Positions 11,756 through 51,751 of a stretch of 64,000 nucleotides of DNA are shown here, piece after piece. Under the pieces are notes generated by a model that was given only the letters and a program-made list of their open reading frames with translations, was not told the origin of the DNA and ran no database searches. The stretch's first letter is position 1, and every line of letters begins with the position of its first letter. Origin of the DNA: Azolla caroliniana (Eukaryota > Plantae > Polypodiophyta). The stretch spans positions 13,082,001-13,146,000 of the forward strand of contig JBHGNT010000011.1 in NCBI GenBank assembly GCA_043228905.1. The letters run 5' to 3'. Made by a program: the position numbers and the translations under genes.

Positions 11756-12674
11756 TGTCGGGGTAGTTGTGGTTCGTGCGGCGAAGTCGCGGGGACTAAG
11801 GTCAAGGGGGAGTTGAAGGAACTTTTATAAGGCTTGCGCACAAATGTTAGGAAGATTAAGGATAAAAAGAATAAGAGTTTAAAGTAATGTGTGTGAGAGA
11901 GAGACAAGTATAGATAAAGGATAGAGACAATGTATGATTCAAGAAAGAAGATTGAGACAAAGTATGATTCTAGAAAGAAGATTGAGACAAAGTATGATTC
12001 AAAGAACAAGGGTATATGATATAAACATGATGTATATTAACAATATAATATTTTACCAACTTTACAATCCTCGATCGCAAACTGAACACATTCTCTATCG
12101 ACCCTTGATTTGAACCCACGACCTCAACTTCGAAACGAGAGGTTCTCCACCCAATGAGCTAGTCTTCTTTAATTGATTGTATTATTTTCTCACTCTCTCT
12201 TGATTCCTTGATTCCCTTTTGTTTTCCTTTCCCCTCTTTTTATAAGTATTTCCATGCATATGGTAATGTCATGCATGTAATGCATGAGTTACATCTGATG
12301 CATGATCGCCATTTGGCGCACATGCATTGCATGTGATGCATGATAGCCATCATGCTCATTTGAGCTCCCATGTATTGGGATAAGTATAATAATGGATATA
12401 ACCCTAAAACAAATAACCTAGCTTAGTGGTGTATGGTTTGTGCTTGATATACAAGGTTGAGGGTTCAAGTCCCTCAATTTTACTTAATACAATATTTAAG
12501 TTTATTCTTATATAGTGAAACACATTCTTGACAACATTTCTAAAAACAAATAGCCTACCCTAGTGGTATATACATTGTGCTTGGTTTATAAGGTTGTGGG
12601 TTCAAGTGTTTGAAATATTATTGAATTCAATATTAAAATTTATTTTTATATCGTGAAGCAAATCCTTCACGACA
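11756..12674 (-). mobile_element. Solo LTR of the TGTCGTGAAG-terminus Gypsy group
   Basis: TGTCG...CGACA termini; 4-bp TSD GCGC; removing it restores the host frame EVLYNAQDAHTWLLDS. Confidence 0.88.
12415..12481 (+). other. tRNA-like cassette (A box, anticodon arm, T arm, TTTT) inside a solo LTR
   Basis: TAGCTTAGTGG at 12419; TTGTG-CTTGATA-TACAA arm; GAGGG-TTCAAGT-CCCTC arm; diverged second copy at about 12555-12611; no convincing acceptor stem. Confidence 0.6.
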
Positions 12675-13557
12675 GCGCAAGATGCGCATACGTGGCTACT
12701 AGATTCCGAAGACACATTTCATGTCACCCGGAATATTGAATGGTTTTTGAACTATTCGGCTAGAGCCAACGGCACAATCCGACTAGTCAATGGGCAGGAA
12801 TGTAAAATTGCCAGAATTAGCGATGTGTCAATTCGACTGCCAAATGGCAATACAATCGTCCTACACCAAGTTCGGCATGTACCCGTGTTGAAGAGGAGTT
12901 TGGTCTCCATCGGCATGCTAGCCGAAGCTGGGTATAGAATGACTCTCAACAAGTGATCATGGATGATCAACCAAGGAAATCTGAAAATCGAGAATGGATA
13001 CAAGTACAATAACTTGTATCCTCTAATGGCTATCAATTTAGAAGGGGTCGTGAACATAGCCGAATCTTGTCACTCGAACCTATGACATGGCCTTCTCGGC
13101 CACATGTCACAAACCGAACTGGACCAGTTGATAGCGATTAGCTACATGCCGAAGCTCCAGACAAAGATGGACTTCTATGAGCATTGTCGCTACGGGAAAC
13201 AGACCCAAAGTTCTCACTCTCTCTACTACTCGCTGGTACATCATCCCCTAGAATTGGTCCACATAGATATATGTGGACTAATGCCTGAAAGGTCACTAGG
13301 AGGCTCCCGGTACTTCATCATATTCATAGATGACTGTACACGGAAGGTCTGGGCCTACTCGATTAGGTCGAAAGGAGAAGCACTCGAGGTCTTCTCTCGG
13401 TGGTTATCCGAAGTGGAGAACTGACCAGGACACCGAGTAAAGACACTTCGGTTGTTGAGGCCACATTTGTAAATAGCCCCTAAAATTATATATGTATAAA
13501 TATAACTAGGGCAACACTGTTCTATGGGAAAAGTTGTTGCCGTTGTTGTGTGTGTTG

Positions 13558-13589
<32 letters not shown>

Positions 13590-14434
13590 CAAAAAGCATT
13601 TTATGTTGTAACCGCTAGTTGCCGAAGGCAGAGCTCGAGGTCATTGCCTCTGAGTCTCACATTGTAATACCTCTCCTCACAGTGATCCTATTCGGAGTTC
13701 AGTGAACTCCCGTGGTTTCCCCCTATTAGGGTTTCCACGTTAATATCCTGTGTCGTCTCATTGTTTTTTGACTGTGTAAGTGCATTCATCATTATTTTAT
13801 TTCCATTTCTTCCATTGAGTGATTAAGACTTGGTTTTGGCGCCACTCCAATCGAGTTGTTTGGCCCTATGCACAAGCACTATTTGCAAAAATATGGTATC
13901 AAAGTGAACAACAAAGGAAAGAAAATGGAGGATTCATTCGGCGGCATGTTCAAGCTCACCGGCTCCAACTACCCTATATGGAAGTCGAAGATGAGGGACA
14001 TGTTGGTGATCAAAGATCTCTGGGCGCCGGTACAGTTTGGAGATGCAAGACCAGAAAAAATAGATGCTCTGAATAATGTTTCAAAACAAGAATGTTGTAA
14101 ATCGAGTCTCAGTATTTCGGAAGCTGGTGAGCCTCAGAAAGCTCGTGAGACTCATATATCAAGATGGCTCCAACATGGCGGAGCACATGAATGCTTCGAG
14201 GGGCTTATAAATCAAACAAGCTCGTTGGAGATACCTCTAGTCAATGAAGTACTTGCGTTGTTGCTGCTCAGTTCTGTCATGAAGACATACATCTTGGCTT
14301 ATCATGACATTCATCTTGGCGAACCAGGAATCGAACCCATAACCTCTTGGTTTACATATTGTACTTTAACCATTGTAATAACATATGTGAGATGTAATCA
14401 TAATAATTATATGTTTAGTTATTACGAGATATTT

Positions 14435-14541
14435 AGAACATTCTAGATTATTCTAGAATGTTCTTGAATATTTCATGATTATATTTATTATTATTATTAT
14501 TCATAAATATCTAAAATATTCTAGAACATTCTAGAATACTC
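14435..14541 (+). promoter_or_regulatory. Heat-shock-element arrays upstream of the LTR TATA box
   Basis: GAAcaTTCtaGATtaTTCtaGAAtgTTCttGAA and TTCtaGAAcaTTCtaGAA; TATAAATA at 14552. Confidence 0.65.
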
Positions 14542-14825
14542 CATAAGGGCCTATAAATAAGAGTCCATACACTCATCACAACTCATTCGGTTCAACACCA
14601 GTCTTTAGCCCTTAGCCTACTCCTTGTAATCTTCTTTCTCGTAATATAATCGCATTCCCATTTCTTATCTCTCACTTATACTTTTCTCTCTCTCGCACTC
14701 TCTCCCTCTTTCACTCTCTTTTGCTATCACTATCGCTATCTCTACCGCTCTCGCCATCTCTATCGTTATCGTTATCTCTATCGCCATCGCTCTCTCTCTG
14801 CTTCCTACTCAAGAGTCACGACAGT

Positions 14826-14836
14826 TTGAACCGAAT
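14826..14836 (+). promoter_or_regulatory. Self-priming PBS of element D
   Basis: TTGAACCGAAT is the exact reverse complement of ATTCGGTTCAA at 14585-14595, 33 nt after the TATA box. Confidence 0.8.
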
Positions 14837-14908
14837 ATTTCTTTTCCCTTTCTCCAATAACCCTAGCAAGCTTTCTTCTTTATCCTTCTTCCTTTTTCCC
14901 CCGCGGTT

Positions 14909-16036
14909 ATGGAGTCGGTCAGCAAGCAAGAGTATATGCGTGTCCTTTCGGAGCTCGATATGCTCACCACTAAGTTTGTGGCATTAGAGCAAGAAAATCA
15001 AAGGCTACTCGGGGATCTTCAACAAGTCAGTACTGAGAAAGCTCATCAATATGAGGAGTTATCACAACGGGTTCATCAACTTGAGGCTACTATATTAACA
15101 TTACGAGAACAAGCGGCGGGGGTTCAAAACTCCCCAAGGGAACCAAAGATTAGCCTCCCTGCCAAGTTTGATGGTACCAGATCTCTCTTTTGAGGTTTCC
15201 TGAATCAAGTTTGTTTGGTGATTCAGTTACATCCCAATCGGTATCCAACTGATGCTGCCCGTGTGGGATTAATAGGAACCTTGCTAAGCGGTACAGCGTT
15301 AGCATGGTTTGCACCACTTCTTGAGAAGAAATCACCATTACTGGAGGATTTCGAGGCATTCGTTAAGGAGTTTCAAGCTAGTTTTGGAGATACGGATAGC
15401 ACTAGGACTGCAATAAACAAGATTCGAAGACTCCGACAAGGAGATCGTCCCGCTTCAGCTTATGCCGCAGATTTCCGTCTCTTGGCATGCGACATCCCTT
15501 GGGATGAGGCAGCCTTAATGGATCAATTCCGTCAGGGTTTGCGTAACGATGTCAAAGATCTTCTTCTTACTTTCCATGAAGATCCAAAGTCTCTTACTGA
15601 AGCTATTAGCCGAGCTGTGCGATGTGATAATCGCCTATTTGAGCGACGTTCTGAACGTCAACAAATGTTACGCCGCCAACCGGAACAGACATACGCTTCT
15701 ATAGTCGCCACACCGCCACAAGGTTCTAGACCCGTTACGAGGGATGGTCCCACTCCGATGGAAATAGAGTCGACACAACGTCGAGGGCCCTTATCAGATG
15801 CTGAGAAACAACGACGTCGGGCGCATCGCCTATGCCTCTACTGTGGTGGTCCAGGACATATAGCTGTGAATTGTCCACATAAACCCAGGCGTCAAGTTTA
15901 CCAAGTAAGTGCACATGACAACCCTACATCAAGTTCTACTATCACTTCTAATAACTTAAGTACTAAGCCTAATAGCCCATGCCATGAGAATAGATTTGAT
16001 GTCTTGAGCCAATTAGAGGATGTGTTAAACGAATAA
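14909..16036 (+). pseudogene. Gag of element D (one in-frame TGA at 15191)
   Basis: N-terminal coiled coil; LPAKFDG; LRQGDRPASAYAADF; CLYCGGPGHIAVNC. Confidence 0.9.
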
Positions 16037-19000
16037 GTCCGGCCAAAATAGGAGCCATTTGGTTGGACCATCCTAGTTATGTAGAGTCAGTACCTAGTTG
16101 TGGTTCCATTTCATCAAATCAAGTTAGTAGAGTTTTTTCTGCACAAGTCGAGCTTAGCACATCTACAGGTCATCGCGCCCTAGCCTCTGCCCTCCTAGAT
16201 TCCGGAGCCAATTCTTGTTTCATGGATCGCGAGTTTGCATTGACTCAAAACATCATCTTGAAAAAACTCCCAAACCCAGTAGCTGTAGGAGTCATCGATG
16301 GTCGCCCTATAGCATCAGGAGATATAGTCGAAGAGTCTGAACCAATTCGTGTAGTCCTAGGTAATTTGGCTAGTGTCATCTCATTTAACATCATTAGTAG
16401 TCCGGAGCACTCTCTAGTTCTTGGTCTTCCTTGGTTTGAGTTACATAACCCAACCATTGATTGGAGAAAAAGAACTATTGAAGAGGTCACCGTACAATCC
16501 AAGTCTCTTGAAGCTCCAACTAAGGATCTAGGATCCCCCACAATTTCAACAATCTCTATACATCAATTACGAGAGGATGGAAGAAAGGAAGACATGATGG
16601 TATTTGCGGTTTTAGCAACTCCCTCATCTAGCTCACAAGAATTGGGGGTCCAACTACCAAAGAAGTACATAGAATTCTCCGATGTGTTCGATAAGGTGAA
16701 GGCTAATAGACTACCAGAGCATCGACCATATGATTGCCCAATTGATTTGCAGCCAGGAAAAGAGCCTCCATGGGGACCAATTTATAATCTTTCGCCCACG
16801 GAGTTAGAGGTTCTTCGAGAATATATCAATGAGAACTTGGCAAATGGTTTTATCCAACATTCAAAATCTCCTGCTGGTGCACCCATCTTTTTCGTTAAGA
16901 AGAAAGATGGTACGCTTCGTATGGTCGTGGATTATCGAGGCTTGAATAAAGTGACCGTTAGAAACCGATATGCTCTCCCATTGATCTCAAGCCTTCTAGA
17001 ACGCCTCAGTGAAGCAAAGTATTTCACGAAGTTAGATCTTCGAGGTGCCTACAACCTTGTTCGAATTCGTCCTGGGGATGAATGGAAGACGGCGTTCCGC
17101 ACTCGCTATGGTCATTTTGAGTACACAGTGATGCCTTTTGGCCTCACGAATGCACCAGCAGTCTTCCAACATATGGCGAATGATATTTTTCGAGACTTCC
17201 TCGATATCTTCATCATTGTTTACCTGGATGATATCTTGATCTACTCAAAAACTCAAGAAGAACATGATATACATGTTCGCCAAGTTTTGCAACGGCTACG
17301 AGAGTATGGTCTCTATGCAAAATTGGAGAAGTGTAGTTTCGACCAATGTCAAGTGGAGTTTTTGGGGTACATAGTCTCTTCAAATGGCATCTCTATGGAT
17401 CCATCAAAGGTTCAAACAATTTTGGATTGGCAAACACCACAGTCCGTGCGAGATGTGCAATGTTTTTTGGGGTTCGCAAACTTTTATCGCAAGTTCATCA
17501 AAGATTATTCAAAAATTGTGTTGCCCCTCACTCAACTGACGCACAAGAATCGATCATTTGTATGGAGTATAGATGCGAACTCTGCATTTGAGGGTTTAAA
17601 GCAAGCATTTACATCCGCACCAATCTTAATCCATGTCGATCCAATGAGGCGCTTTATACTTGAAGCTGATGCATCGGATTTCGCACTCGGAAGTGTACTA
17701 TCCCAAATTGGTGATGATGGTGAACTGCACCCGGTGGCTTTTCACTCACGAAAATTTGAAGCCGCAGAAATCAACTATGAGATTCACGACAAAGAGCTTC
17801 TTGCCATTGTGGATTCTTTTCAACAATGGCGTCATTTTCTGGAGGGTTCTTCTCAGCAGATTATTGTCTACAATGATCATAAAAATCTAACATACTTTCA
17901 AAGTGCTCGAGTCTTGAATCGACGACAAGCTCGTTGGGCGCAGTTCTTAACTCGTTTCGATTTTGTAATTCTATATCGCCCTGGGATGCAACAAGGAAAA
18001 GCAGATGCTTTATCTAGACGTTCGTATATGGAACTTCAACCTGGAGAGGCCGCATTTGAAAGCCAAAAGCAAATCCTCTTAGGTCCTGATCGTCTACGAA
18101 TAATGGCAATGCATACCATCAACACACCGGGAGATTCAAGGCTTCTTGATTCCATTCGTGAGCAGATTGCGACTGATGCGTTCGCCCAAGAGGTTTTGAG
18201 CCATATTATCCCAAATCGTGCATCTAGCTCCCAAACTCAAAATCCTCGTCTAGACTACACCCAGTTTAGTTGGCATGATGGGTTACTTTTTCGACAAACT
18301 CTCTTGTAAGTGCCTGACGGTCCTTCTCGACTCAAAGTCATGCAACAATGTCATGACACACCAATGGCGGGACACTTCGGCATCCACAAGACTTTTGAGT
18401 TGATTTCTCGCCGATATTGGTGGCCACGGCTTCGCCATTTTGTTACGGATTATGTTCGTAGCTGTGATACATGTTGCCGATCAAAAAAGCCTCGACATCA
18501 TCCATATGGCTTATTACAGCCAATGCCTATTCCGGAGAGCCCATGGAAATCTATTTCCTTGGACTTTATTACGGATCTTCCACCTTCCAAGGGATTTGAT
18601 TCGATTCTCACGGTTGTCGATCGTTTTACGAAGATGGCACACTTCCTTCCATGCACAAAGACCATTACTAGTCAAGAGACAGCTGATTTACTCATGCGGG
18701 AGGTGTTTCGCCATCATGGTCTTCCGGATGATATTATCAGTGATCGGGGTCCCCAATTCATCTCGAAATTTTGGCGGCACATGTTCAAACTCTTACATAC
18801 TTCTTGTAAACTCTCTTCCGGCTACCATCCAGAGACTAATGGGCAGAGTGAGCGCACCAACCAAACAGTCGAGCAATATCTACGTTGTTTTGTCAACTAT
18901 CAACAAGATGATTGGGTGGATTTACTACCTTTGGCAGAATTTGCTTATAACAACTCCGAGCATTCTTCTACTGGATATTCCCCATTTTTTGCAAACATTG

Positions 19001-19668
19001 GGTACCATCCTCGTTGGACGATGCTTGAACATCCTGAACTCCCAAAAAACCCAGCTGCTGAAGATCGGCTCACTCGACTCCAAGAAGTTCAGGATATGCT
19101 TTTGCATCATTTATGTGAAGCCCAAAACACTCAAAAGAAGATTGCTGACCGTCATCGGCGTGATTCATCGACTACATTTCAAGTAGGCGATCGTGTATGG
19201 CTCTTACAAGGTAGCATTAAAACAACCCGACCTTGCTACAAATTGGATTATCAACGTTTTGGCCCATATGTCATAAGTGGTAAGATCAATGATGTGACAT
19301 TTCGTCTTGATCTTCCTCCTCATATGCGTCTTCACCCGGTCTTCCATGTTTCACTTTTGGAGCCCTACACAACGAGCTCTATTCCGGGTCGTGTTACACC
19401 TCCCCCACCTCCAATTGACGTTTCCAATGGCTCTGAATATGAGGTTGCCGCTATCCTCGACTCCAAGATCATTCGCAACAAACTATACTACTTGGTTGAT
19501 TGGTTAGGCTATACACCTAATGATCGAACATGGGAGCCTGCCGAACATCTTGCCAATGCCTCCGACATGGTTGTTGCATTTCACAACCAATATCCTCATA
19601 AACCAAGTCTGAACTCTTTTCTTCCGACTCGTGCAACTCGTCATCGAAAAGGGGGGATAATGTCATGA
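16030..19668 (+). pseudogene. Pol of element D (one in-frame TAA at 18307), -1 frame relative to gag
   Basis: LLDSGA; YLDDILI; EADASD; HHCC integrase; GPY motif; chromodomain EYEVAAILDSKIIRNKLYYLVDWLGY...TWEP. Confidence 0.93.
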
Positions 19669-22600
19669 AGACATACATCTTGGCTTATCATGACATTCAT
19701 CTTGGCGAACCAGGAATCGAACCCATAACCTCTTGGTTTACATATTGTACTTTACCCATTGTAATAACATATGTGAGATGTAATCATAATAATTATATGT
19801 TTAGTTATTACGAGATATTTAGAACATTCTAGATTATTCTAGAATGTTCTTGAATATTTCATGATTATATTTATTATTATTATTATTCATAAATATCTAA
19901 AATATTCTAGAACATTCTAGAATACTCCATAAGGGCCTATAAATAAGAGTCCATACACTCATCACAACTCATTCGGTTCAACACCAGTCTTTAGCCCTTA
20001 GCCTACTCCTTGTAATCTTCTTTCTCGTAATATAATCGCATTCCCATTTCTTATCTCTCACTTATACTTTTCTCTCTCTCGCACTCTCTCCCTCTTTCAC
20101 TCTCTTTTGCTATCACTATCGCTATCTCTACCGCTCTCGCCATCTCTATCGTTATCGTTATCTCTATCGCCATCGCTCTCTCTCTGCTTCCTACTCAAGA
20201 GTCACGACAAGTTCCCTCCTAAATAATTGGGAGACATTAGTTGTCACTTTGGGTAATGCTGGGCCGGAAGGTAAACATTTATCCCTAGCGAGAGTAAAAT
20301 CAAGCTTGCTGAATGAAGAGGCTCATCGAAAAGACAAAGAAGTGATCTCTGACTCAAAAGCCCTAGTTACCGAAACCGATACACAACGAGGGAGAGGCCG
20401 GAATCGGAGTCCCCTGAACCGGGAAAAATTGGGGACAAGGTCAAAGTCAAGGGGGAGGCCTACGTGCTTCTATTGTGGGAAGCCCGGGCACTTCTAGAAG
20501 AATTGTCAACAATTCCAGATTGACTCCCAAGTATGCTCACTGGGACTATATCCTAGCCAATCGACTAAATAGTAGAGCTTGTTGCGAATAATCTTAGAAT
20601 CAAGGATGGCGGAAACCTCGTACTCAGGTCCATCTTCAAGTTTGATCGGGGGTGGAGGTGGTTTAATACGACTTGGGATGGTTCTATCCTGATAGGGTTC
20701 TAGGAGAGAACTATGAAACACCGGATGTATCTGTAGTTGCGGAGGTAGATCGAGACGGAAAGTGACACCATTAATTTTTTCGATAATACGGAAAGGACCT
20801 AATCACCGATAATCCAAGTTCTCACATGGGCGAGTAGTCTTGATGTGTCGTCGTAGTAGCCATACCCGATCTCCGATATTAAAACAAGATGGAAGCCGAT
20901 GAGGATCTGCGTAAACCTTGTGTGTTCGTTGAGCTTGCTGTAGATGAGTAGATAAATCCGCTTGTATCTTGCAGAGCCACTCCAAACGATTCTTGAGTAG
21001 ATGTGTGTAACTATGGGGTTTCAAATACACACCACTGGGGGTGACAACCCGTGTAAGCATAAAATGGTGTAACCTTTGTCGATGAGTGGACAGAGTTATT
21101 ATATGCAAATTCGGCGAAGTGGAGAATATCTGCTCAGCCATCTTGATGATAGCTTAGAAAGCACCGAAGATATTGCTCCAGTATTTGATTTGTTCATTTT
21201 GCTTGGTCGTTTGTTTGTGGGTGGTAGTTGGAGGAGAGGTTACAAGTGACCTTGAGAATTTTGAAGAGGTGCTTCCAGAATTTCGAGACGAACTGGGGTC
21301 TACGGTTGCTGATGATACTATCGGGGAGGCCATGATGCCGACATACCTCACGCATGACAGTTTCGGCGGTTTCTTCACTGGAGATTTCTTAGTACATGGC
21401 AGGAAATGGGCCATCTTCGTATATCAATCTACTAATGTGAAGATCGCATCGAATCCCTTAGAAACCGGAAGATCTGTGATGAAATCTAGAGCAATGGATT
21501 GCGACGGCTTGCTTGGAATTGGTAATGGTTCTAATAAACCATATGGATGATGCCTTGGCATTTTTTCTCTCCAACATGTATCACAAGTCTGAACAAATTC
21601 TTCAACAAATTGTCGCATATGGGATCACTAGAATTATCGTTGTACTAAATCTAATGTTTCAGTACTAGCAAAATGCCCAGTTGTATATGTGTCATGATAG
21701 TTTTGGACTACTTGAAGGCGACAAGAACCATTAGGAACATACAAGAGTTTCTTAAAGAATAGTAATCCATCATCATGACATTCGAATTGTCGATAGTCCG
21801 TACTTGGTTGTTGCGACTGTGAACAAGATGCTCGAGAGGGATCAATTTGTGCGAGAATGACTTGGGTGAAAGCATCTGTCTTCAAGTCCTCCCATATGGT
21901 AGCGATAACGTGTGAATCTAATGGCATACCGAAGACCTGCGTTGCTTGCAGTCGAGCCGGTCCTAGGATTACTTGCTTTTGGTTATCGAAAGCTGGCTCG
22001 CTGGGATGCGGTGCTAGATACGAGCGCCATGATAATGCATTAGCCTTCCCTTGTTGATTTCCCAGATGATATGTAATTTTGAAGTTGAAACGAGTGCGGA
22101 ATTGGGCCCACCGAGCTTGACGTCGATTTAACACACGAGCATTCTGAAAGTAAGCAAGGTTTTTGTGATCACTGAATACGGCGACTTGATGAGAAGATCC
22201 CTCTAGAAAATGTCTCCATTGTGTAAAAGAGTCCATTATTGCTAATAGCTCCTTATCATGAATTTCATAGTTGATTTCGGCATTGTCAAACTTGCGTGAG
22301 TGGAAAGCCACAAGATGTAGCTTTTCATCATCGCCTTGTTGTGACAGAATGCTACCCAAGGCGAAATCCGACGCGTCTACCTCAATGATGAATGGTTTTC
22401 CCGGATCAACATGAGCTAGAATAGGAGCTGATGTAAATGCCTTCTTACGATTCTCAAAAGCCATGTCCGCTTCTTCAGACCAAACGAACGATTGTCCCTT
22501 CCTGGTAAGCTGTGTGAGAGGTAGAACAAGCTTTGAGTAATCCTGTATAAACTTGCGGTAGAAATTGGCAAATCCTAAAAAGCATTGCACATCTCCCAAC

Positions 22601-22955
22601 GAACGTGGAGTCTGCCATTCTACCACTATTTTGACCGTAGCTGGATCCATGGAGATGCCTTTTGTGGAGATGACATAGCCCAGAAATTCCACCTGGTTGT
22701 ACTCGAAGCTACATTTTTCTAGTTTTGCATAAAGATCATGTTCTCGAAGCCGTTTTAGTACTAACAATATATGAGAATCCTGCTCTTGTTGGGTCTTCGA
22801 ATAAACCAGTAGATCATCCAAATAGATGATCAAACAAACATCCAAGAGATCTTAGAATATATCATTTGCCATGTGCTGGAAGACTATTGGTGCATTAGTG
22901 AGACTGAATGGCATGGCCGTATACTCGAAGTGCCCATATTTGGTGCGGAACGCGG

Positions 22956-25256
22956 TAATTCGCGCTTGCATGTCGGATCTGGGCGGGATTGTCGGGGTCA
23001 TGGATCAGGAGGGGAGGAGCTGCCGAGAACCCGAATCCTTTGGAGCTTGCCACGTCGCCGGTCGGTTCGATCTCGGATACTCTCCGGACGCGGCCGGTAA
23101 CCGCATGAGAAGTGAGAGAGCTCACCCTCGTCCTTGCCGCCCCTTTCGCCCTTATGTACAAGGGGCCCAAAAGAGGCACGGGGCACGACCTGGTTAACCG
23201 CGCCCGCGCATCCAGTTACGACCAACACCTCTACACCGGCGACCACGCACTCACCCTCTCTCGTATCCTACGCTACCCGAAAACACACACACACACACAC
23301 ACGTGCGCACGACATTTGCTGCGACGCTAGTTCCACACAGAGAGGAAGAGGGAGCTTGCATCCTAGGGCCGGTCGGGGAGCTCCCAGGCTCGTTCGCGCG
23401 ATGGGACCCTCTTGCAGGGCACGCCTCTTCCAGAACGACCACCTCCTGTGCTAAGCCGCCTTTTGGGAGCGCACGGGCTCGCTGAACTGAGTTGGGTCTT
23501 GCGCACCAAGGAGGGAAACCTGCCAATGAATCACCTAGCATGCGAGCTCTTCACAGGCGATAGAAGCCAACACCCACACACACACAGATGTGCTGGACCG
23601 TTGTCGTGAAGATCCGTCACTACACGCGGATCGTGAGGCGGAACCATCGGGGTTCTGGACCGGAAGGACTCAAATTTTGCACAAGCTTTAGCGAGAAAGG
23701 AATTAAGATAGATTGAAAGAGAGAGAGATTGAGATAAAGATAGAACGATTGCCTTTAGATTGAGAGAGATTAAGATTAAACTCTTGACTTTAGATTTCAA
23801 GAACAAGATTGATACATCAATTGGTTATCGAATTTCTTACTTTTAATTTCTTGATTAATACATCAATTGGATAACGAATTTTCTTCTTAATATTAATTTT
23901 GATATAAAGTACAAAGCTCGCTTCATGAAAAAATTCCCCTTTTGCTTGATTCCTCCACTCTTTTATAGATGCCCTTATGCATATGGTGCATGTGAGGGTG
24001 CAAGACATGCACGGAATGCATGCAATGCACGCAATGCATGCTTGCCATGTCATCATCTAAGCTCTCACACATGAGAATTTACATGTAAAGCTATAATGAT
24101 AAAAATATAATCCTTAAAGAAATGGTTTGGCTTAATGGTAAGCCTATTGCTTCCTATCTTGGAGATGTTAAGTTTGAGTCTTGCTTAAGTCTTTTTCTTT
24201 TATGCACAAAATACTATTAGGCTTTTGAACCAAATATCTTTAAGACACCATGCACCGCGATCAACCGACCCGACCGATTCGTCCGATTTGCATCCGTTTG
24301 GTTCGGCCGAGTCTGCATCCCGAGTTGTTTGCCGGTAATCGACGCCGGCTCAAGCATCTTGATTGCCGCCGATTTTGGTTGGCCAAAGACTTTACAAGTA
24401 GCTAAGCCACACAACTCATCCAATTAACTTAGTCCAAGTCAGCTTGAACTCTCTATGCTCCATACATAGACACAAAGACAATAGTTTTTGCTCTGCCTTA
24501 TATAAGGTGGGATCCTTATTTGTCCTGTCTATGTGGGATATCTCATAGTTTTATCTTTCTCTTTTTCTTTGCAAACTTCCTACCCACATAACTTGAGACT
24601 TAGATGTTTGTTTGTTATGTAGTAAAGTGCATTCGAAAGCTCTTGAAGACCTCCATCTTTTTGTACCATGATATTAAAATAGTATTTTTACTATTATTGT
24701 TTTATATTATTCATGCTCGATTTTGTATGTTTTATGTGATTTTCACACCATTGCCGAAAATCTTCATGACACCGTGGAGTACTAAGAACCAACAAGCAAG
24801 AACACAAGAGAGGTGTAGACAGTCCGCACGCTGCCCGCCACAACTGAACACACCACCTACACACGCACACAGATGGCACCGAAACCCTGACAAAGGATAG
24901 AGACAACACACACACCAAGATGAAACCCTAACAAAGAATAGAGAAAGACGTTATACACAAAAGTTATTAACACCAAAAATGGAACCCACGAATGGGAACC
25001 TATGGAACCTCAAAAACAAGGAACCCTTTTACAAGGGGAGCGCCTTCCCTTTTATAGAGCAAGGTGGAGGTCGCGTGACTATGTGGGATAAATCTCGACT
25101 TATAAGGGATATTCTGTCCCAAATTAACTCCTACTCGGCGCCATTAAGGCACCCCTATTATTCACACGTTTTAATAAGGGTGAGTGCACACGATGCACTC
25201 CGCCAATTCTTTCGATTTTCCCCAGTTTCTCACCATGGCCCGGAATCTTCACGACA
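22956..25256 (-). mobile_element. Probable solo LTR (about 1.1 kb, TGTCGTGAAG group) containing a second solo LTR
   Basis: Right end CTTCACGACA; interrupts the RT motif EWKT|AFRTKYG; possible TSD GCGG/ACAG; left terminus eroded. Confidence 0.6.
23602..24771 (-). mobile_element. Solo LTR (TGTCGTGAAG group)
   Basis: Termini TGTCGTGAAGAT...ATCTTCATGACA; 4-bp TSD CCGT; organisation resembles 11756-12674. Confidence 0.82.
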
Positions 25257-25974
25257 ACAGTCTTCCATTCATCTCCTGGTCGGATCCGAACGAGGTTATA
25301 CGCTCCTCGTAGGTTGATCTTTGTGAAGAACCTTGCACCATTGATCTGTTCTAAAAGACTTGAGATAGGGGTAAGTGCATACCTATTCCTGATGGTGACC
25401 TTATTCAAGCCGCGATAGTCTATGACGAGACGAAGTGATCCATCCTTTTTCTTGATGAAGAAAATGGGTGCACCGGTTGGAGATTTCGAATGTTGAATGA
25501 AATCGTTTACCAAATTCTCGTCTATATAGGCTCGAAGGACTTCTAGCTCGATTGGTGACAAATTGTAGATCGGTCCCCATGGTGGCTCTTTTCCCGGTTG
25601 TAAATCGATGGGGCATTCATACGGTCGGTGGTGACTCGGTGAGGAAGCGTATTGGCTTGTACCTTATTGAACACATCAACATACTTAAGATACTTCTCTG
25701 GAAGTTGAACTGTGGATTCCTTTTTAGTAGTGTTGGAAGGTTTTACTGTTACCACGAAGACAAACTTTGCTTCCTTGTGTCCTTCCTCACGCAATTGATG
25801 TAGCGAAATGGTTGCAATCTTATGAGTAGATCCTCAGATTTGTTGATACCGGATTTCTCTTGTTCTCTAATCTATGTTTGGGTTATGTAATTCAAACCAC
25901 GTTAACCCCAAGACAATTTGATGATCTGGACTACTAATTATATTAAATGATACTACACACACTAAGTTATATGG

Positions 25975-28900
25975 TTGGATCCAAAGTCCCGGCCTTGCAT
26001 ATTCCTCGGATACGGTGATGATGAGTTCGGCTACCGAGTGTGGGATCCGGTCGACAAGAAGGTTTTCTGGAGTCGAGATATTATCTTCATGGAGGACAAC
26101 ACCCTTGCCGACTGGGAGTTAGAGAAGAAGATAATGAACTCTGAGTTGATCGGTAAGGATCGGTTTGATGAGATTCGGACCTACCCGGCTAAGAGCCAGT
26201 TGACACTCAAAGAACCGTCCGGTTACGGTGAGAATACTGAACCGACAGAAGAAGAAGAAGAGGAAGCGGAAACTGGAACAACCCAAGACCCTGAATCGGA
26301 TTCGGATGAAGAACAAATAGAGGAGCCAGTTGCCGAAAGCCAAAGACGGAGATATCCTCTCAGAGAAAGAAGAGCCCCTCGGAGATTTTCGGATGTAGAG
26401 CATTTGTTGCTGACCGATGAGGGGGAGCCGGAAAGCTTCGAAGAAGCAAAGGAGGACACCCACAACTGCAAGTGGTTGAGTGCCATGCAGGTCAAGATGG
26501 ATTCCCTGCATGAGAACCACACATATGAACTAGTGGAGTTGCCAAAAGGAAAGCGGGCACTCCAAAATATGTGGGTGTACAAGCTGAAACTGGGAGATGC
26601 CGGCAACCCCCCGAGATACAAAGCTAGGATCGTGGTGAAGGGGTTCCAACAGAAGAAGGGCATGGACTTCGATGAGATATTTGCCCCGGTAGTAAAGATG
26701 ACTTCCATTCGGACAGTGGTGAGCATGGCAGCAAGCATGGACCTTGAGGTAGAGCAGTTAGACGTGAAGATGATGTTCCTCCATGGTGACCTCGAAGAGG
26801 AGATCTACATGCAGCAACCGGAGAGATTTGTGAAGAAAGGGAAGGAGCACCTGGTTTGCTGGTTGAAGAAGAGCCTCTATGGTTTGAAGCAGACTGCCCG
26901 GAAATGGTACCGGAAGTTCGACTCCTTCATGATCGATCAAGGGTACCACAAGATGCAGGCTGATCACTGCGTATTTGTGAAAAAGTTCGTGACGAAAACT
27001 CAAGGCTCCTTATGCGCTACGCTCGGCCACAACCGAGATTCTTTTCATACACAGGAAACAAGAAACGAAAAAAACACGCGACACAAAGGAGAGAAAAGGG
27101 TACACAGAATGTTTACGTGGAAAACCCCAAACTAGGGGAAAAACCACGGCAGCCCACAGGCTGCAAACTATCACTAAGTTGGAATGTACAAAACAGTGAG
27201 TTCACGAAGGCAACGACCTCGTGCTCACGATCTTCGCTACAGGTGGCGGTTACAACAGAGGCAGCGACCTCTTTCTCTCTCTCTCTCTGTACATTGTTAT
27301 GTGCTCTCTCTTCTTCTTGCACCAACAAGAAAATAACAAAAACTCACTACACATATTTGCCATAAGTCATATTTACACTAATATGACTTTTCGGCTATTT
27401 ACAAATATAGCCACGATGGGCTCTCAGAAACATATTTACGAATATGTCTCTTCCTCCGGTTCTCACCGGGTCTGTACCATCCGGTTCTCCGTAGTCGGGT
27501 ATTCCTCATCCGGTTCATACCGGGCTTGCACCATCCTGCTCTCCGTAGCCGGGTACTCCTCATCCGGTTCATACCGGGCCTGCACGATCCGGCTCTCCGT
27601 AGTCGGGTACTCCTCATCCGGTTCATACCGGGCCTGCACGATCTGGCTCTCCGTAGCCGGGTACTCCTCATCCGGTTCTCCGTAGCCGGGTACTTCTCTT
27701 CCGGTTTCGGTCGAGGCCTATCGGCCTCGGTCGAGATTGTTCGTCGGCACTGTTCTTCTCCCTTCCCATCCGGAGGGACCTGTCTCCCAACAATTCGAAG
27801 TTGGAGACTTCCTGATACTCCTCCTATACGTGGACGACATGTTGATCTTCGGTCGAGACCAAGTCAAGATACGGATGTTGAAGAAGGCCCTCAATCGGAC
27901 CTTCTCAATGAAAGACTTGGGTCCGGCAAGACAAATACTGGGGATGCATGTCATCCGGGACCAGTCAACGAAGCAATTGTGGCTGTCAAAGGAGAAGTAC
28001 GTGACAAAGGTGCTTCAACAGTTCAACATGTTAGATGCGAAACCGATCGGATTGACACTTCTGGCAAACTGCAAGCTATCTGGTAAGCAAAGCCCGAAAA
28101 CGAAGGCAGAGAAGGCGGATATTATGAAGATACCATATGCCTTTGCCGTTGACAGCTTAATGTACGCACTGGTGTGTACCCGACTGGATATCGGATACGC
28201 AGTCGGGGTGGTGAGCCGATTTATGAGCAATCCTGGCAAGGAACACTGGAATGCGGTAAAATGGATACTTCGGTACTTGAAAGACACGTCAAGTATGTGT
28301 CTCCGATTCGGCTCCAGTAAACCCCAACTTGATGATTTCACTGATTTGGATATGTCGGCTGATGCGGGTACCAGTTGGTCAACATCGGGATATGTTATGA
28401 CATATGCAGGGGGAGCTGTTTCGTGGCAGTCGAGGCTGCAGAAGACGATTGCGTTGTCAACCACATAGGCGGGCGGAGTACATGGCAGCCGTGGAAGCCG
28501 GTAAAGATATTATGGATGAAGGACTTCATCGGAGAGCTAGGGATCTGGCAAGAGGAATACCGGCTCTATTGCGATAGTCAAAGTGCCATCCACCTTGCAA
28601 AGAATGCGGCGTATCATTTTAGGATGAAGCACATCCATCGGAGGTACCACTGGATCTGGGAGCAAGTGGAAGATCGAGAGTTCGTGCTGATGAAGATCCA
28701 CATGGAGGAGAATGGGTCAGATATGCTGACCAAGGTGCTGACGTCTGACAAGGTGGACACATGCCGGAAGTGAATTGGACTAACCAGACATCGCCTGCCG
28801 GAGTGAAGGGGGAGTTTGTTAGGATTTTGGTCCCTCTGGATGGGCTGATGAAGGCCCGATGAAGGCCCGATAAGAACCGGACGTTGCAGGCTTGGTGAGA

Positions 28901-29072
28901 ACCTCTCACCGGATGAAGGGACATATATGTAAATATATTCAAGAGAGCCCACTAGGGCTATATTTGTAAATAGCCCGAAAGTCATATTAGTATAAATATG
29001 ACCTAGGGCAAACATTATTGTGAAGTTGTCATTATTTTGTATAGAGTTATTGGTGTAACTAATGTACAGAGC

Positions 29073-29111
<39 letters not shown>

Positions 29112-29376
29112 TCTGTTGTAACCGCTGCCAGGCGAAGATTAAGAGCAAGAGGTCATTGCCTCTGTGTTCCTCTGTTGTATTCTCCTTACATAGTGATAGT
29201 TGGAACTAGTGGGGCTCCCGTGGTTTTTCTTGTTCAGGGTTTTCCACGTAAACATACTGTGTACTCTCTCTTGCTCCTATTGTTTGTGTGTATATGTGCA
29301 TTTCTTCCTATTCCCATCTTCCTGTGGTTGATTCTAAAACGGTTGTGACCGAGCAATATTCCGCATATTCCTATCA
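25975..29376 (+). mobile_element. Element K: 5'-truncated Copia (integrase end, RT, RNase H, 3' LTR)
   Basis: CIFLGYG; YKARIVVKGF; YVDDML; PPT GAAGGGGGAG; LTR at 28817-29376. Confidence 0.88.
26990..27792 (-). mobile_element. Copia solo LTR in RT of K
   Basis: TG...CA termini; TSD GTTCG/ATTCG; 54-bp tandem repeats; related to 31002-31646. Confidence 0.88.
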
Positions 29377-30356
29377 TTTGGTTTGTAAAAGAATACGTGC
29401 GGAAGCAATAGAAAACCGAACACAGAAAATACGCAAGTTTAATGGAGAGCTTAGGATATACACAGAGTACGCGGGAGAGATAGAGAGAGAACACACAGAA
29501 ACTCAATTCAAAATAATACTCAATCTGTACATACATCATGCTCAATGAGCACCTTTTATACAAGCCCTGGCAATAGGGTTGACACAAGTACTAACAGTAC
29601 TTGACCGCTCATAAATGAGCCTACTACACTAACTCCCAAAATTATTCCTCAAGAGGAATATCTTCCCAACGTCCTCACGGTTTACGCACCGATATGGCTA
29701 TGTTATGTGTACCGATTTACGCACCTAGTCTATGCACTGGTTTACGCATCGTATTATGCACGAATGTTGAGCTTGTCTCTCAACACTCCCCCTCAAGCTC
29801 AACTTGAGGTTCAACCTGCTCTGCCGGATCTACGCTTCAGTTCCTTTTGGCTTCACGCCTCGCTCGCGCTCCTCGACCTATTCGATTCCACACGCCTCGA
29901 CCCTTTCGCTTGTAATTAAGTCGATTAATCTCCTTTACAATTGTTAGGAAATAGGTCCCTCCGGATGGGAGGCCTCGGCCGAAACCGGATGTGGTGAACC
30001 CTGTTACGGAAGACCCGGTGAGAACCGGATGACGAGTACCCGGCTACGAAGAGCCGGATAGTGCAGACCCGGTGAGAACCGGATGAGGAGTACCCTGCTA
30101 CGGAGAGCTGGATGGTGCATACCCGATGAGAACCGGATGACGAGTACCTGGCAAGCGCCGGATGATGCAGGCCCGGTGAGGAGTGCTCACCGGATGAAGG
30201 GACATATTCGTAAATATGTTTCCTGAGAGGCCATCGGGGCTATATTTGTAAATAGCCGAAAAGTCATATTAGTATAAATATGACTTAGGGCAAACTTAGA
30301 AAGCAGTGTGTTGTTGTCATTCTTGTTGGTGCAAGAATAGAGAGCGCATAATAGTG

Positions 30357-30392
<36 letters not shown>

Positions 30393-31001
30393 AAAAGAGG
30401 TTGTTGCCTCTGTTGTAACCGCCGCCTGTGGTGAAGATCGTGAGCATGAGGTCATTGCCTCCGTGAGCTCACTACAGTAATCATTGTGATATAGTGATAG
30501 TTTGGAGTCTGTGGACTCCCGTGGTTTTTCCCTCTTACGGTTTTCCACGTTAAACATCCTATGTACTCTTCTCTCCTTTGTGTCGTGCTTTCATTTCCCG
30601 TTTTCTGTGTATGATTCTAAGCTCGGTTGTGGCCGAGCGTTACGCACAGGGAGCGTGCAGTTCCTGTCAAAGTGGTATTAGAGCGAAACGACACAGAAGA
30701 TGGACGAATTGTTGGGCGGCATGTTCAAGCTCACCGGCTCCAACTATTCAGTGTGGAAGTCGAAGATAAGGGACATGCTTGTGGTTAAAGATCTTTGGTT
30801 ACTGGTTTAGTTTGGGGACAAGAGACCAGACAAAATCGACGCCACGATATGGGAGGTGATGCACATGAAGACAACGGCGTACATACGGTGCTTCATCGAC
30901 ATGAGCCTTTACAACAACCTCAATGAAGAGAGCAAGACTCATGAGCTTTGGGAGAAGATCGGCATTATGTTTCAGAACAAAAATGATGTTAACCAGGTTT
31001 T

Positions 31002-31646
31002 TGTTGGGAGACAGGTCCCTCCGGATGGGAAGGGAGAAAAACCGTATGAGGAGGACCTGACTACGGAGAGCCGGATGGTGCAGACCCGGTATGAACCGGA
31101 TGAGGAGTACCCGGCTACAGAGAGCCGGATGGTGCAGACCCGGTATGAAACGGATGAGGAGTACCCGGCTACGGAGAGCTGGATGGTGCAGACCCGGTAT
31201 GAACCGGATGAAGAGACATATTCGTAAATATGTTTCTGAGAGTCCATCGAGGCTATATTTGTAAATAGCCGAAAAGTCATATTAGTATAAATATGACTTA
31301 GGGCAAACTTTTAGGTTGTTATTCTTGTTTGAAAAAGAATAGAGAGAGCGCATAACTGTGTATAGAGAGAGAGAGAGAGAGAGAGAGAAAGAGGTCGTTG
31401 CCTCTGTTGTAACCGCCGCCTGTGGCGAAGATCTGTGAGCACGAGGTCGTTGCCTCAGTGAACTCACTATTGTACATTCTTACATAGTGACAGTTTGCAG
31501 CCTGTGGGCTGTCGTGGTTTTTTCCCCTAGTTTGGGGTTTTCCACGTAAACCTCCTGTGTATTTTTTTTATTTCCCGTTTTCTGTGTATCATTCTAAGCT
31601 CGGTTGTGGCCGAGCGTTGCGCATAAGGAGCGTTCAGTTCCCGTCA
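31002..31646 (+). mobile_element. Copia solo LTR in gag of J
   Basis: TG...CA termini; perfect TSD GTTTT. Confidence 0.92.
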
Positions 31647-32836
31647 GTTTTGGTATTCCGGAAGCTAGTAAGACTCCGGTACCAAGATGGCTCTAGCATG
31701 GCGGAGCACATGAATGCCTTCCAGGGGCTGATACACCAGGCAACATCATTGGAAGTACCTCTCGCCGATGAGGTACTAGTGCTACTCCTGCTTGGTTCCC
31801 TCCCGGATAGCTGGGAGACGTTGGTTGTCACTTTGGGCAACGCCGGGCCGGAAGGGAAACGGTTATCCCTAGCAAGAGTAAAGTCAAGCTTGCTAGATGA
31901 GGAGGCGCGTTGGAAAGATAAGGATACGAGCTCCGATACCAAAGCGCTCCTTACCGAATAGGAACGTGGAAGACAAAGGAACCGTAGTCCCCAAAACCGG
32001 GAAAAGTTGGGGACACGGTCAAAGTCGAGGGGGAGGCCTACCTGCTTCTATTGCGGCAAGCTGGGACACTTCCAGAAGAACTGTCGGCACTTACGAAAAG
32101 ACAAGGAAACCGACGGTACCGATTCAAAACGGACACCGGACCGGAACGGTAAAGACCGGAGGGGGCCGGACCGGAAGGGAACGACGGCAATTGCGGGAAG
32201 TGAAGAAGAGTTGATGCTCATCACCGAAGAGAGCGAGCTAAACCTTGTCGGCGACGAGATGACCTGGGTGGTCGACTCCTGAGCGTCATTCCACCTTACC
32301 CCGGACCGGAAATGCTTCTCATTCTACTCAGCCGGTGATCACAGTTGTGCCCGGATGGGGAATGAAGGTACATGCCCGAATTGTCGGCATAGGAGACGTG
32401 TGGTTGACAAAACAACCCGGATGCAAGCTGCTGGTGAAGGATGTACGACACGTTCCGGAGGTTCGTCTGAACCTGATATCAGCCAGTCGGCTAGACGATG
32501 AAGGCTACACGGGTAGCATCCAGAACGGTGTTATGAAGTTCAGCAAAGGGAGCCTGATTGTGGCTCGGGCCCGGAAGGTAAACACGTTGTACCTGATGAA
32601 TGCCCGGTTATGTTTAGAAGAAGTGAACGTAGCATCGGACACTGCCGGTGAGCTGTGGCACAAAAGGCTATGTCACATGAGCGAGAAGGGGATGAAGAGG
32701 CTTGTAGATGACAACCTCATTTCAGTGAAGAACGTGCACTTGGAGAAGTGCACTGATTGTCTGGCCGGTAAGCAAAACCGGACCTCCTTCCGAACAAGGC
32801 CACCGATGAGACGTAATGCACCACTGGAGCTGGTGC

Positions 32837-33268
32837 TGTCAGGAACAGTACTAAGACAGAGAAGGACTTAGTACTAAAAGAAGTATTAGTACTAAGAGAG
32901 GTGAAGAACTCTAAAGAGAAGGAAAGAGTGAGTGAGAGGGAGGGAGAGAGAGATCGAGAGAGAGAGAGAGAGTGATGATAAGAAAAGATATATATTATGT
33001 GAAGAAAATGTATAGTAGCTAGGAGGCTTAAGACTGGCGTTGAACCGATTTGGTTCGAAATAATGCCTTGTGCCTCCTTTTATAGTGTTCTAAAGAATAC
33101 TCCTGAAGTTTCTAGAATGTTCCAGAGAAATCTGGAATATACATCAATTTTCTATAATAAAACATAAATGAAAATAATATTTTACGTATTACAATGTATA
33201 ATCTAATGGTCAAGAGCTCGACCCATGTAGCATAAGGTCATGGGTTCGAGTCTTGCCATATCATGACA
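32837..33268 (-). mobile_element. Chromovirus (F family) solo LTR in integrase of J
   Basis: TGTCA...TGACA termini; perfect TSD GGTGC; homologous to 60215-60597. Confidence 0.92.
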
Positions 33269-39906: not shown

Positions 39907-42900
39907 AAATACAGCTCATGTGGCGACACTCCTCCATTAGCAGAAGTCCGATTCTGCAAGTAGACAACCGTCTTCATGGCTTCAGCCCAATAGAATTTCA
40001 GCATATGCTTCTCTTCAAGCATTGCCCTGGCCACTTCTTCAATTGTTCGATTCTTCCGCTCGGCTATGTCGTTCTGCTTCGGCGTATATCTACATGAGAA
40101 TTCGCGTCGAATTCCCTCCTTCTATAGATAACTTGTGAACTGGTCGGAGAAGTACTCCTTCCCGCCATCAGATTGCATGCATTTGATCTTACACCCTATT
40201 TCCCTTTCCGCAAGGCTCTTCACCTTCAGGAAACATGCGAAGACTTTGCTCTTCTTCGCGATTGTGCATACCCACGTGTGCCGAGTGAAGTCGTCGATGA
40301 AGGTTACAAAATAACGGCTTCCACCGAGATTCACGTTCTGTGCCGGACCCCACACATCCAAATGGATCAAATCCAGCGGACTTGGACTACGATTACGCTA
40401 ACTGGGGAATGGAAGTCGGTGCTGTTTTCCCATCTGATAGGCTTCGCAGACTTGGGCATTACGGCCCTGAAATTTCGGCAATCCGAATACGATGTTCCTC
40501 GTCTGCATTTCACAAAGCCATGGGAAATTTACGTGGCCGAACCGCTTGTGCCACAGGTCGATGTCCGATTTGACCTTTTGTCCTTTCGTGTACAACACGG
40601 TTCTGGCTTGATTAGTGTCAAGGATAAACATCCACCCTTCACGGCGCCCTTGCGGGATTACTTTGCCTTCCTCTTCTATGAAGCATCCGAGATGCGTGAA
40701 TCGAACCTGCATTCCCTGGTCGACGATCTGACCGAACGACACTAGGTTCTTCATTATTTTCGGGATGTGCAACATGTTCATTAGCTTCCCTTTCTGCCCG
40801 ATGTGGCTGAGAAGACCGGTTTCGACCACTCCTCATGATTCCAGCTTCTCCAGGTACGAGAACCATTCCTTGTGACTTGTCATATGATTTGACGCCCGAT
40901 ATCAACATACAACACCTTGCTTGATTTCGAGGTGTTCACGGCCATTGGCTTGGCCTTATGCTTCATTACAAAGGCTGAGTCCGATTTGTTTCCGGCTCGT
41001 TCAAAGCCTTCTGCGTAGTGCGATCTCTGACGCCTCTTTGCGTCTCTTCGGCTCGATCCGGCTTTATCCGAATCAGCTCGCTTTTTCCAGCACTCGCTTT
41101 CCTTGTGGCCTTTCTTGCCACAATACTAGCAATCCGACACGGTCTTCTCTTGCCGTCTTTCGGTGCCGCCATGACTCCCCCTGCTTGCGGAGGGTTCAGA
41201 ATTGCTTTCGGCATCTCGATTATGCCGTACATTCTGCTCTTCTTGGCCGCCTCCATTGCGCGCCGATCCGCCTCGTCCACCACGACCATGGGGCCTATCA
41301 TCCTCCATGTAAAACATCTTGTTGTCGGCATGCGTGCTTGTCGACACACCCGTGTGGTTCTCTATAAGGAGCATCGACTGTAAGTCGAAAAACGACGACG
41401 TATTCTCCTGTGTACACATAGCAGTTCGGAACGCTCCGAACCTCGACGCTAGTCCCCCGAGACAGATTTGCACCATCTTGCCTTCCTTGACGTTCACATC
41501 GATAGAGGCTAAGGAGTCGCATATCTCTTTGATCTTCGAGGTGTAATCAGCCACTGACAAGTCGCATTGTCGCAAGTTGCTCAGTTCCTGTCGGAGTTGA
41601 AGCTTCCTGGCTGTGGTGCTTGCGGCGAAGATCTTCTTTAGATTTCCCCAAACATCCTTTGGCGTTTTCGCATCCCGAATATAGCTAAGGAGTTGTTCGC
41701 CCACACAAGATGCGAAGCAATATAGTACTCTGCTCACCGACTGTTCCCACGTCGGGAAATCTCTGTGTGTCGATTTGGGTGCTATGTCATTTGCTCCGTT
41801 GACGTAGCTCCAGTGACCGTGTCTGAGTAGGTACTAGTGCAACTTATAGGACCAAGACACGTAGTTGTTTCTGTCGAGCTTCTCGGTAGGAAGCGAGCTA
41901 GCCATGCCTCTATCCATTTTGTTTTTCCTGTTCTTCTTGGTTAGTTTTCTTTTCAAGCTATGTCGGCTGTAGAGGTTCACAACCCTCGTGCTCTCATTTG
42001 GTTTGTAAAAGAATACGTGTGGAAGCAATAGAAAACTGAACATAGAAAATACGCAGGTTTAATGGAGAGCTTAGGATATACACAGAGTACGCGGGAGAGA
42101 TAGAGAGAGAACACACAGAAACTCAATTCAAAATAATACTCAATCTGTACATACATCGTGCTCAGTGAGTACCTTTTATACAAGCCTTGATAATAGGGTT
42201 GACACAAGTACTAACAGTACTTGACCGCTCATAAATGAGCCTATGACACTAACTCCCAAAATTATTCCTTACGAGGAATATCTTCCCAACGGCCTTGTGG
42301 TTTACGCACCGATACGACCATGTTATGCGTACTCATTTACGCACCTAGTCTACGCATTGGTTTTCGCATTGTATTACGCACGAATGTTGAGCTTGTCTCT
42401 CAACATGGTTCTTCGAGGAAGGTCAAGAGTAAATCCTTGACATCGTTACGTAGGCGATAACAAAATTTCTCCATTAATGCTTGGTCATCCTAGGGGATAT
42501 CAGAGAGGAGTAGACGGAAATTTGCAGCGTTGTCGCGTTACTACGCGCGTGGGTGGAGAAACGAGGCGGGACCATTGGGGTCTTGAACCAAAGAGTAGGT
42601 GATAGAAGGGGAAAGAGAAAGAGAGAGACGCTCGATTACGTATGAGCAAAGAAACACAGGGACATGGCCCTGTCAACGCAGAAGACACGAATGGACACAG
42701 AGACAGAGAGACACGAATGTTTGTATATTAATGAATGACAAATAAACAACAGAGCACGTGAGCGGTTACAACCGAACAGGCCGGCGAACAGATATCGATG
42801 CCTGCTCGTCTGAGCACGAAAGGGGATAGGATGGAGGTGCTGCTGGAAGCACACGGGCGTTCCTCGAAGCAGCGCAAGCCTCCCGAAAACCTGCAGAGAA

Positions 42901-46876: not shown

Positions 46877-47075
46877 GGTTACGGAGCCGGATGATGAAGA
46901 CCCCGGAAGACCCCGGTTACGGAGCCGGATGATGAAGACCCCGGTTACGGAGCCGGATGATGAAGACCCCGGTAACGGAGCCGGATGATGAAGACCCCGG
47001 TTACGGAGCCGGATGATGAAGACCCCGGTTACGGAGCCGGATGATGAAGACCCCGGTTACGGAGCCGGATGACGA
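46877..47075 (+). repeat. 28-bp tandem array in U3 of the 5' LTR of I
   Basis: Unit GGTTACGGAGCCGGATGATGAAGACCCC; 6 full units plus fragments. Confidence 0.95.
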
Positions 47076-51679: not shown

Positions 51680-51751
51680 AGGGGGAGTTTGTTGGGATTT
51701 CGGTCCCTCCGGATGGGATGTCCGGGGATGAATGACAGCAAGCCCGGTTGC

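Follow-up and report, generated by a model that had tools for sequence, protein, structure and literature searches.

The stretch studied here is a 64-kb window of the Azolla caroliniana assembly GCA_043228905.1 (contig JBHGNT010000011.1; "the window" always means all 64,000 nucleotides), and the whole of it is made up of nested Copia and Gypsy elements. Our subject is a short module with the A and B boxes of a tRNA gene, which lies antisense in the U3 region of several Gypsy long terminal repeats (LTRs), ahead of their TATA box. Judged from the sequence comparisons, our verdict is that this arrangement is real and selected, and that it is the probable remnant of an outward-facing tRNA-type promoter about 170 nt upstream of TATA.

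tRNA-like modules in the window and their carriers

The elements that carry the module are the following, with their target site duplications (TSDs).

11756..12674, minus strand: solo LTR C, Phygy-type, 919 bp, 4-bp TSD GCGC, sitting inside a Copia element
14275..20209, plus strand: element D, a full-length Tcn1-type chromovirus, 5935 bp, 5-bp TSD AGTTC
23602..24771, minus strand: solo LTR E, Phygy-type, 1170 bp, TSD ACGG
32837..33268, minus strand: solo LTR F1, Tcn1-type, 432 bp, 5-bp TSD GCACC
60184..60597, minus strand: F2, a truncated 5' LTR of the family of F1, broken off at 60598

The modules themselves are listed below, where T4 is a run of four T residues.

12419..12472, plus strand: inner one of the two antisense A/B modules of C, with the A box 175 nt ahead of TATA and T4 at 12478-12481
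12556..12609, plus strand: antisense A/B module, outer copy of C, which arose by tandem duplication of the LTR start
12106..12161, minus strand: sense A/B module of C, about 80 nt downstream of the C TATA
14327..14380, minus strand: antisense A/B module in the first LTR (5') of D, with the A box 172 nt ahead of TATA at 14552
19713..19766, minus strand: antisense A/B module, 3' LTR of D; the first downstream T4 is the polypurine tract complement
24128..24181, plus strand: antisense A/B module of E, 590 nt into the LTR and 161 nt ahead of TATA at 23967
33199..33253, plus strand: antisense A/B module of F1, 115 nt ahead of TATA
60560-60597, plus strand: half-module of F2, A box only, where another LTR with the start TGTTGAG cuts in at 60598

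Box pairs with at most two mismatches are found four times in the window, compared to 0.4 times per shuffle. When scored with a matrix trained solely on eight modules from contigs outside the window, the seven complete modules take ranks 1 to 7 with scores of 21.7-38.9. The site that follows them has 13.3, and six shuffles gave 15.5 at most. Neither of the two outcomes that would have refuted the initial annotation was obtained. That annotation had placed the modules from the letters alone, and its places and strands hold with two corrections. At 60557-60597 the A-box half is present but the rest is gone, and the copy at 12098-12165 is present in sense orientation but lies outside U3, downstream of TATA. 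Such a sense module was not found in E. The C core promoter is thus flanked by modules that are both directed away from it. The description of the modules as tRNA-derived A/B cassettes that are family features, antisense and upstream of TATA, was borne out as well.

The best tRNA likeness is that of the inner copy of C, where the details given earlier for 12415-12481 were all recovered: the A and B boxes have no mismatches, the anticodon-like stem has 5 bp (one of them G-T) with a loop of 7 nt, the T stem has 6 bp, and TTTT follows. It scores 21.2 bits against the Rfam tRNA model (model positions 8-63, E-value 0.015 for 111 nt), below the gathering threshold of 29. The D, F1 and sense copies, the three others tested, gave no Rfam tRNA match, ARAGORN found 0 tRNAs, and no tRNA was listed by the Rfam scan of the whole window. 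We therefore reject a functional tRNA, given this score, stems that are only 53% paired (see below) and the ARAGORN result. The GCCA of D and F is out of register with a tRNA 3' CCA (positions 70-72 and 65-67), and this reading of it was dropped. The two antisense copies of C, reported as starting at 12415 and 12555, both exist and go back to a single tandem duplication of 137 nt at the LTR start (12406-12674), within which a second, decayed LTR terminus lies. In family C contigs, joints suggest copy-number variation of the 137-nt unit, and other family copies have the consensus letters at 12558 and 12608 of the outer module.

The claim that two Gypsy lineages carry modules also stands, these being Tcn1 chromoviruses (D and F) and Phygy-type elements (C and E). 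D holds gag, reverse transcriptase, RNase H, integrase and chromodomain, with in-frame stops in its reading frames, and its two LTRs of 549 bp each are 99.8% identical, with one base different. The chromodomain lies at the integrase C-terminus (Pfam Chromo, E-value 5e-12). F was placed in Tcn1 by LTR likeness and its self-primer, and since D and F have a common start motif as well as the self-primer we treat them as one lineage. Named protein relatives in the D/F Tcn1 comparison are fungal, fish, frog and algal, at 43-48%. The self-priming pair of D is

14585..14836, plus strand: 11 nt after TATA complementary to 11 nt directly behind the 5' LTR

and the same primer-site complementarity of 11-12 nt is found in D and in four related contigs of the set described below (L003, L007, L008 and L015), with four different primer sequences (L003 and L007 counting as one) that co-vary with their binding sites. 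A CACCAG/CGCCAG motif always follows the self-primers, and several primers lie in an inverted repeat after TATA. The available text of Neumann et al. (PMC6317226) describes self-priming Tcn1 elements in moss and club-moss, and Phygy with a 4-bp TSD of pattern NCGN in Physcomitrella.

Two further Phygy-type elements have LTRs without the module and served as controls.

42531..54373, minus strand: element G
54729..59914, plus strand: element H

TSDs of 4 bp with the NCGN pattern run through the C, E, G and H set (GCGC in C, ACGG in E, ACGC, and ACGT/ACGC in G), and the flanks of family C follow it in all four sequencing runs examined, with 28-43 contigs per run. The last 90 nt of E, its 3' end, align with G and H (0 of 300 shuffles as good), whereas the 3' end of C has no significant alignment to G or H (57-61 of 300). 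No chromodomain is present in the integrase of G, which shares 25% identity with that of D; a viral sequence collection searched with both integrases contained no relatives. The primer sites of G and H (53696-53719 and 55452-55475) look complementary to what we take to be the 3' end of plant tRNA-Trp. H has young LTRs (97.9% identical), yet five internal frames are without a Pfam match, and its interior holds purine-rich repeats, a duplicated tract and an LTR-like start at 59059. Elsewhere in the window, Copia LTR U3s hold 28-nt and 54-nt tandem arrays that differ among related families (46878-47233, 51743-52154, 29980-31269 and 35994-36266).

Distribution, geometry and conservation across families

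Relatives were collected by scanning metagenome contigs with the D integrase, and the best 80 of 620 loci were kept (numbered with L). An LTR start with at least 120 nt could be called in 34 of the 80, L006 was added by eye, and 46 were uncallable or too short. Of the 15 moss-type Tcn1 contigs with a readable LTR, two pairs of which (L003/L004 and L008/L009) are near-duplicates, 11 have the module in antisense close to the start of the LTR. The count is none among 20 more distant LTRs, nine of whose starts (41-44% identity) are uncertain. Carrier integrases are 57-87% identical to that of D. In the moss-type carriers the B box ends 5-39 nt from the LTR start, and the orientation is antisense in every carrier LTR, with C alone having an extra sense copy. 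A profile of 17 modules, run against the window and the 80 loci, gave 21 matches, of which eight lie in the window. The other 13 are spread over 12 loci and belong to the moss-type clade or to an F-like LTR. Four matches are from outside the training set, all of them copies of trained families. No module was found in five Copia LTRs, in G and H or in the host LTR of E.

The C modules are spanned by contigs of four organisms, which connect them with the end of the LTR as well as with the enhancer. The Phygy side of the evidence consists of the two solo LTRs C and E together with the reads of the four runs. Because the module is present in both D LTRs, in many contigs of the four organisms, and in at least ten families, a free, copy-specific insertion of a tRNA-derived short interspersed element (SINE), with a tail and a TSD of its own, is ruled out. 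In the integrase tree, which has 39 rows with a single short one omitted, the module label needs at least two changes, either two gains or one gain with two losses. L012 (3255-3330) has a weak B-side remnant (p ~0.02) with a (TA)n expansion and L017 (1333-1400) has none, and these appear to be sister families losing the module. In the module-less Tcn1 LTRs L016 (2129-2330) and L018 (2740-3100), U3 is an array of ~31-nt repeats.

The A box lies 158-208 nt ahead of TATA in 10 of 11 LTRs, F1 with 115 nt being the outlier, and this distance holds though the distance to the LTR start spans 64-644 nt. The 50 nt upstream of the module, which lie between it and the enhancer array, are 66-92% AT. Two of these arrays are in the window.

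14430..14540, plus strand: heat-shock-element-like array (TTCnnGAA) of D, between module and TATA
12237..12380, minus strand: RY (CATGCA) and ABRE-like (abscisic acid (ABA)-response element) array with TATA of C

Arrays of the TTCnnGAA type are found in D, F, L008 and L013, and RY/ABRE-like arrays in C, E and L003-L007, where heat-shock element, RY and ABRE are names that we presume to fit. In Physcomitrium, the available text of PMC7466625 reports that the Gypsy family RLG2 is induced by heat and ABA and that RLG1 is heat-repressed.

The A and B boxes stand at tRNA spacing (31-34 nt apart, 39 in L015), which is the layout of a type 2 RNA polymerase III (Pol III) promoter; the spacing is 32 in the tRNA gene of the yeast TFIIIC structure (PMC11724288, available portion). 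When ten Tcn1 families are compared, the A box has a mean pairwise identity of 0.59, positions 44-47 (AGGT) have 1.0, positions 48-51 have 0.47 and the B box (52-61) has 0.78, where the box values are inflated because the boxes served to select the modules, positions 44-47 being outside the search motif. The anticodon region and both flanks are at 0.28-0.38 (the anticodon middle at 0.32-0.33 and positions 62-72 at 0.28-0.37), compared to a composition background of 0.26-0.29. Stem pairing is found in 53% of 236 cells and in 48% for shuffles, with the T stem free on its 3' side; the faint excess (4 of 500 shuffles) is within what relatedness alone gives and was set aside. What the same source on yeast shows is that TFIIIC contacts the region of positions 44-47 and that changes at +44 to +47 alter transcription. 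The conservation pattern thus matches a TFIIIC footprint, that is a DNA site read by protein, and not a tRNA. We also considered AGGT as a splice donor, which was rejected by eye as the next letters do not fit. Weak Rfam matches to snoRNA and others were below threshold and treated as chance. The module as a landing pad for other elements was rejected too, with no insertions within 60 nt upstream and with the cut in F2 lying inside the module.

The initial annotation had suggested that the two lineages acquired the module convergently, and this is not supported, with D and F forming one lineage and the C enhancer aligning with Tcn1 LTRs. With the module excluded, that enhancer aligns with E, L003, L005, L006 and L007 (0 of 300 shuffles each), although common short factor sites could inflate these alignments. 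An exact 18-mer is common to the C array and the Tcn1 LTRs L003, L004 and L007, and the C enhancer has no alignment to the module-less Phygy LTRs G and H. The links of E to Tcn1 are weaker (L003, 8 of 300 shuffles; the module-less L012, 0 of 300). Since the C enhancer aligns to Tcn1 and not to G or H, transfer of a U3 cassette would fit better than convergence, which we find doubtful.

A predicted TFIIIC boundary and its alternatives

We lean, with only slightly better than even confidence, to the module being a predicted TFIIIC site that serves as a built-in boundary for a stress-type RNA polymerase II (Pol II) promoter. As only the letters read by TFIIIC are kept, the remnant is likely to be such a boundary, one that would shield the promoter of the element and give it its direction. 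A tRNA or tRNA-SINE piece would have entered U3 of a Tcn1 ancestor and been copied to both LTRs, after which all but the protein-read bases decayed. TFIIIC may then bind the B box and positions 44-47 and act without a product, while the 50 AT-rich nt that separate the module from the enhancer could be where TFIIIB is loaded. Nucleosomes would be phased by this complex and heterochromatin of the flank kept away. It would also stop the enhancer from driving Pol II backward, since in the 3' LTR such firing would yield RNA antisense to the element. Likely by recombination, the cassette would have passed to some Phygy LTRs. The available text of PMC4228148 credits yeast Pol III complexes with nucleosome phasing, with barrier and insulator activity, and with keeping Pol II from transcribing in both directions. 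The fullest form of the proposal is more tentative and we would put it below even: a domesticated tRNA-gene promoter may provide a TFIIIC boundary that travels with the element, fixed at the length of one nucleosome ahead of a Pol II promoter that responds to stress; boundary and enhancer together may form a cassette swapped between chromovirus and non-chromovirus lineages, and so keep autonomous Gypsy elements inducible in heterochromatin.

Several points weigh against the boundary, besides the inflation of the box identities mentioned above. The role itself is argued by analogy with yeast, where tRNA genes may also repress nearby Pol II promoters (PMC4228148, in the text available). Conservation is higher in AGGT than in the B box, something that binding by TFIIIC alone would not obviously require, and several copies have changes in the B-box core (C56 in L003, L005 and E). 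The module is dispensable, for 4 of 15 moss-type Tcn1 contigs lack it, as do G and H. The earlier expectation that the boxes are more conserved than their neighbours holds across the ten Tcn1 families but is weak within family C, where 3 of 50 box sites vary compared to 30 of 206 elsewhere (p = 0.076). Two of the three variable box sites in that family shift toward the consensus.

The module could instead be an active outward Pol III promoter, whose short antisense RNA over the U3 start and polypurine tract damps or times the element. Both boxes, minimal spacing and the AT-rich upstream sequence are kept, T4 lies 5-69 nt past the B box in 10 of 14 copies, and in D and L001 it coincides with the polypurine-tract complement. 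However, the terminator position is not conserved, T4 is missing from the stretch examined in the other four copies, no structure is kept in the transcribed body and the E module is far from the polypurine tract, so that we hold this to be unlikely. Still lower is our estimate for a relic of a SINE or tRNA that evolves neutrally, or for a site at which some unrelated Pol II factor binds and which resembles tRNA boxes by chance. That some families are without the module, that L012 keeps only its remnant and that the tree needs at least two changes would agree with a relic, as would the tRNA-like pieces noted in "not a few" Repbase LTRs (PMC10886601, available portion). A relic should decay evenly, whereas here the middle is at background and three blocks at tRNA spacing are kept, and there is no reason for an unrelated factor to require an A box at a distance of 31-34 nt.

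The lowest place goes to the improbable idea of a role in the genomic RNA, in which the module would be complementary to the D and T arms of host tRNAs, like that half of the bipartite primer site of Ty3 which lies in U3. The positions kept are also conserved tRNA loop positions, and a tRNA-like U3-R segment is reportedly present in HIV-1. The location of the site just behind the polypurine tract and its antisense orientation match Ty3 (PMC5371799, as far as its available text goes). On the other side, Tcn1 elements are self-priming by their four co-varying primers of 11-12 nt and so need no tRNA primer, positions 48-51 inside the would-be duplex vary (0.47), the E module tracks TATA and not the RNA end, and C has a sense copy as well. 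If the modules are TFIIIC boundaries, this suggests a way for elements with a chromodomain to remain open to expression after landing in heterochromatin, many candidate TFIIIC sites would be scattered through a plant genome, and the LTRs would offer a compact natural test of B boxes as boundaries in plants.

Comparison with known systems

The closest known systems are the Helenus TRIMs (miniature retrotransposons with terminal repeats), which, in the available text of PMC10886601, have tRNA-derived LTR sequence that is kept around boxes A and B and is unlikely to be a working tRNA; one Helenus family is known from club-moss. They are non-autonomous, 311-1263 bp long and tRNA-primed, and the tRNA part is sense in four LTR consensuses and thought to be the element promoter. 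Here the module is antisense, in protein-coding, self-priming elements of 5.9 kb, and beside a TATA promoter. By the features that define Helenus and TRIMp3, D has tRNA-derived A/B boxes in both LTRs, but at 5935 bp with gag-pol it is outside the non-coding size of about 0.3-1.3 kb, and a sense Pol III promoter is lacking. The tRNA-like pieces in Repbase LTRs come from the same paper (Kojima 2024), which in its available part analyses TRIMs alone. Cassandra and Ajax TRIMs also have an internal Pol III promoter in both LTRs, for which a SINE origin is proposed (PMC10886601, same portion). Theirs is 5S-derived, in non-autonomous elements, and drives the element's own RNA (shown for Cassandra).

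The U3 primer site of Ty3 and the U3-R segment reported for HIV-1 share with our modules a U3 sequence complementary to tRNA T and D arms. They match one specific primer tRNA, whereas the Tcn1 elements here self-prime and keep the box positions only. Yeast boundaries at tRNA genes and extra TFIIIC (ETC) sites, and Ty elements upstream of tRNA genes, share a B-box site that acts beside a Pol II promoter and gives no RNA product (PMC4228148, available text). The yeast site is owned by the host, and here it is inside the LTR at a fixed distance to TATA. Moss Tcn1 and Phygy are the carrier lineages, and the available texts on them (PMC6317226, PMC2864245) describe primers, TSDs and TATA/CAAT boxes, not tRNA-like LTR boxes. 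Our literature search did not find such modules in moss Tcn1 or Phygy LTRs, though subscription papers, Repbase reports and supplements may contain them. The arrangement is a previously unlisted one, a variant of Pol III boxes in LTRs. Pol III pieces in LTRs have so far been described as promoters of tiny non-autonomous elements, and as the module has been kept for long, backwards, in protein-coding elements that have a TATA box of their own, it must serve another role.

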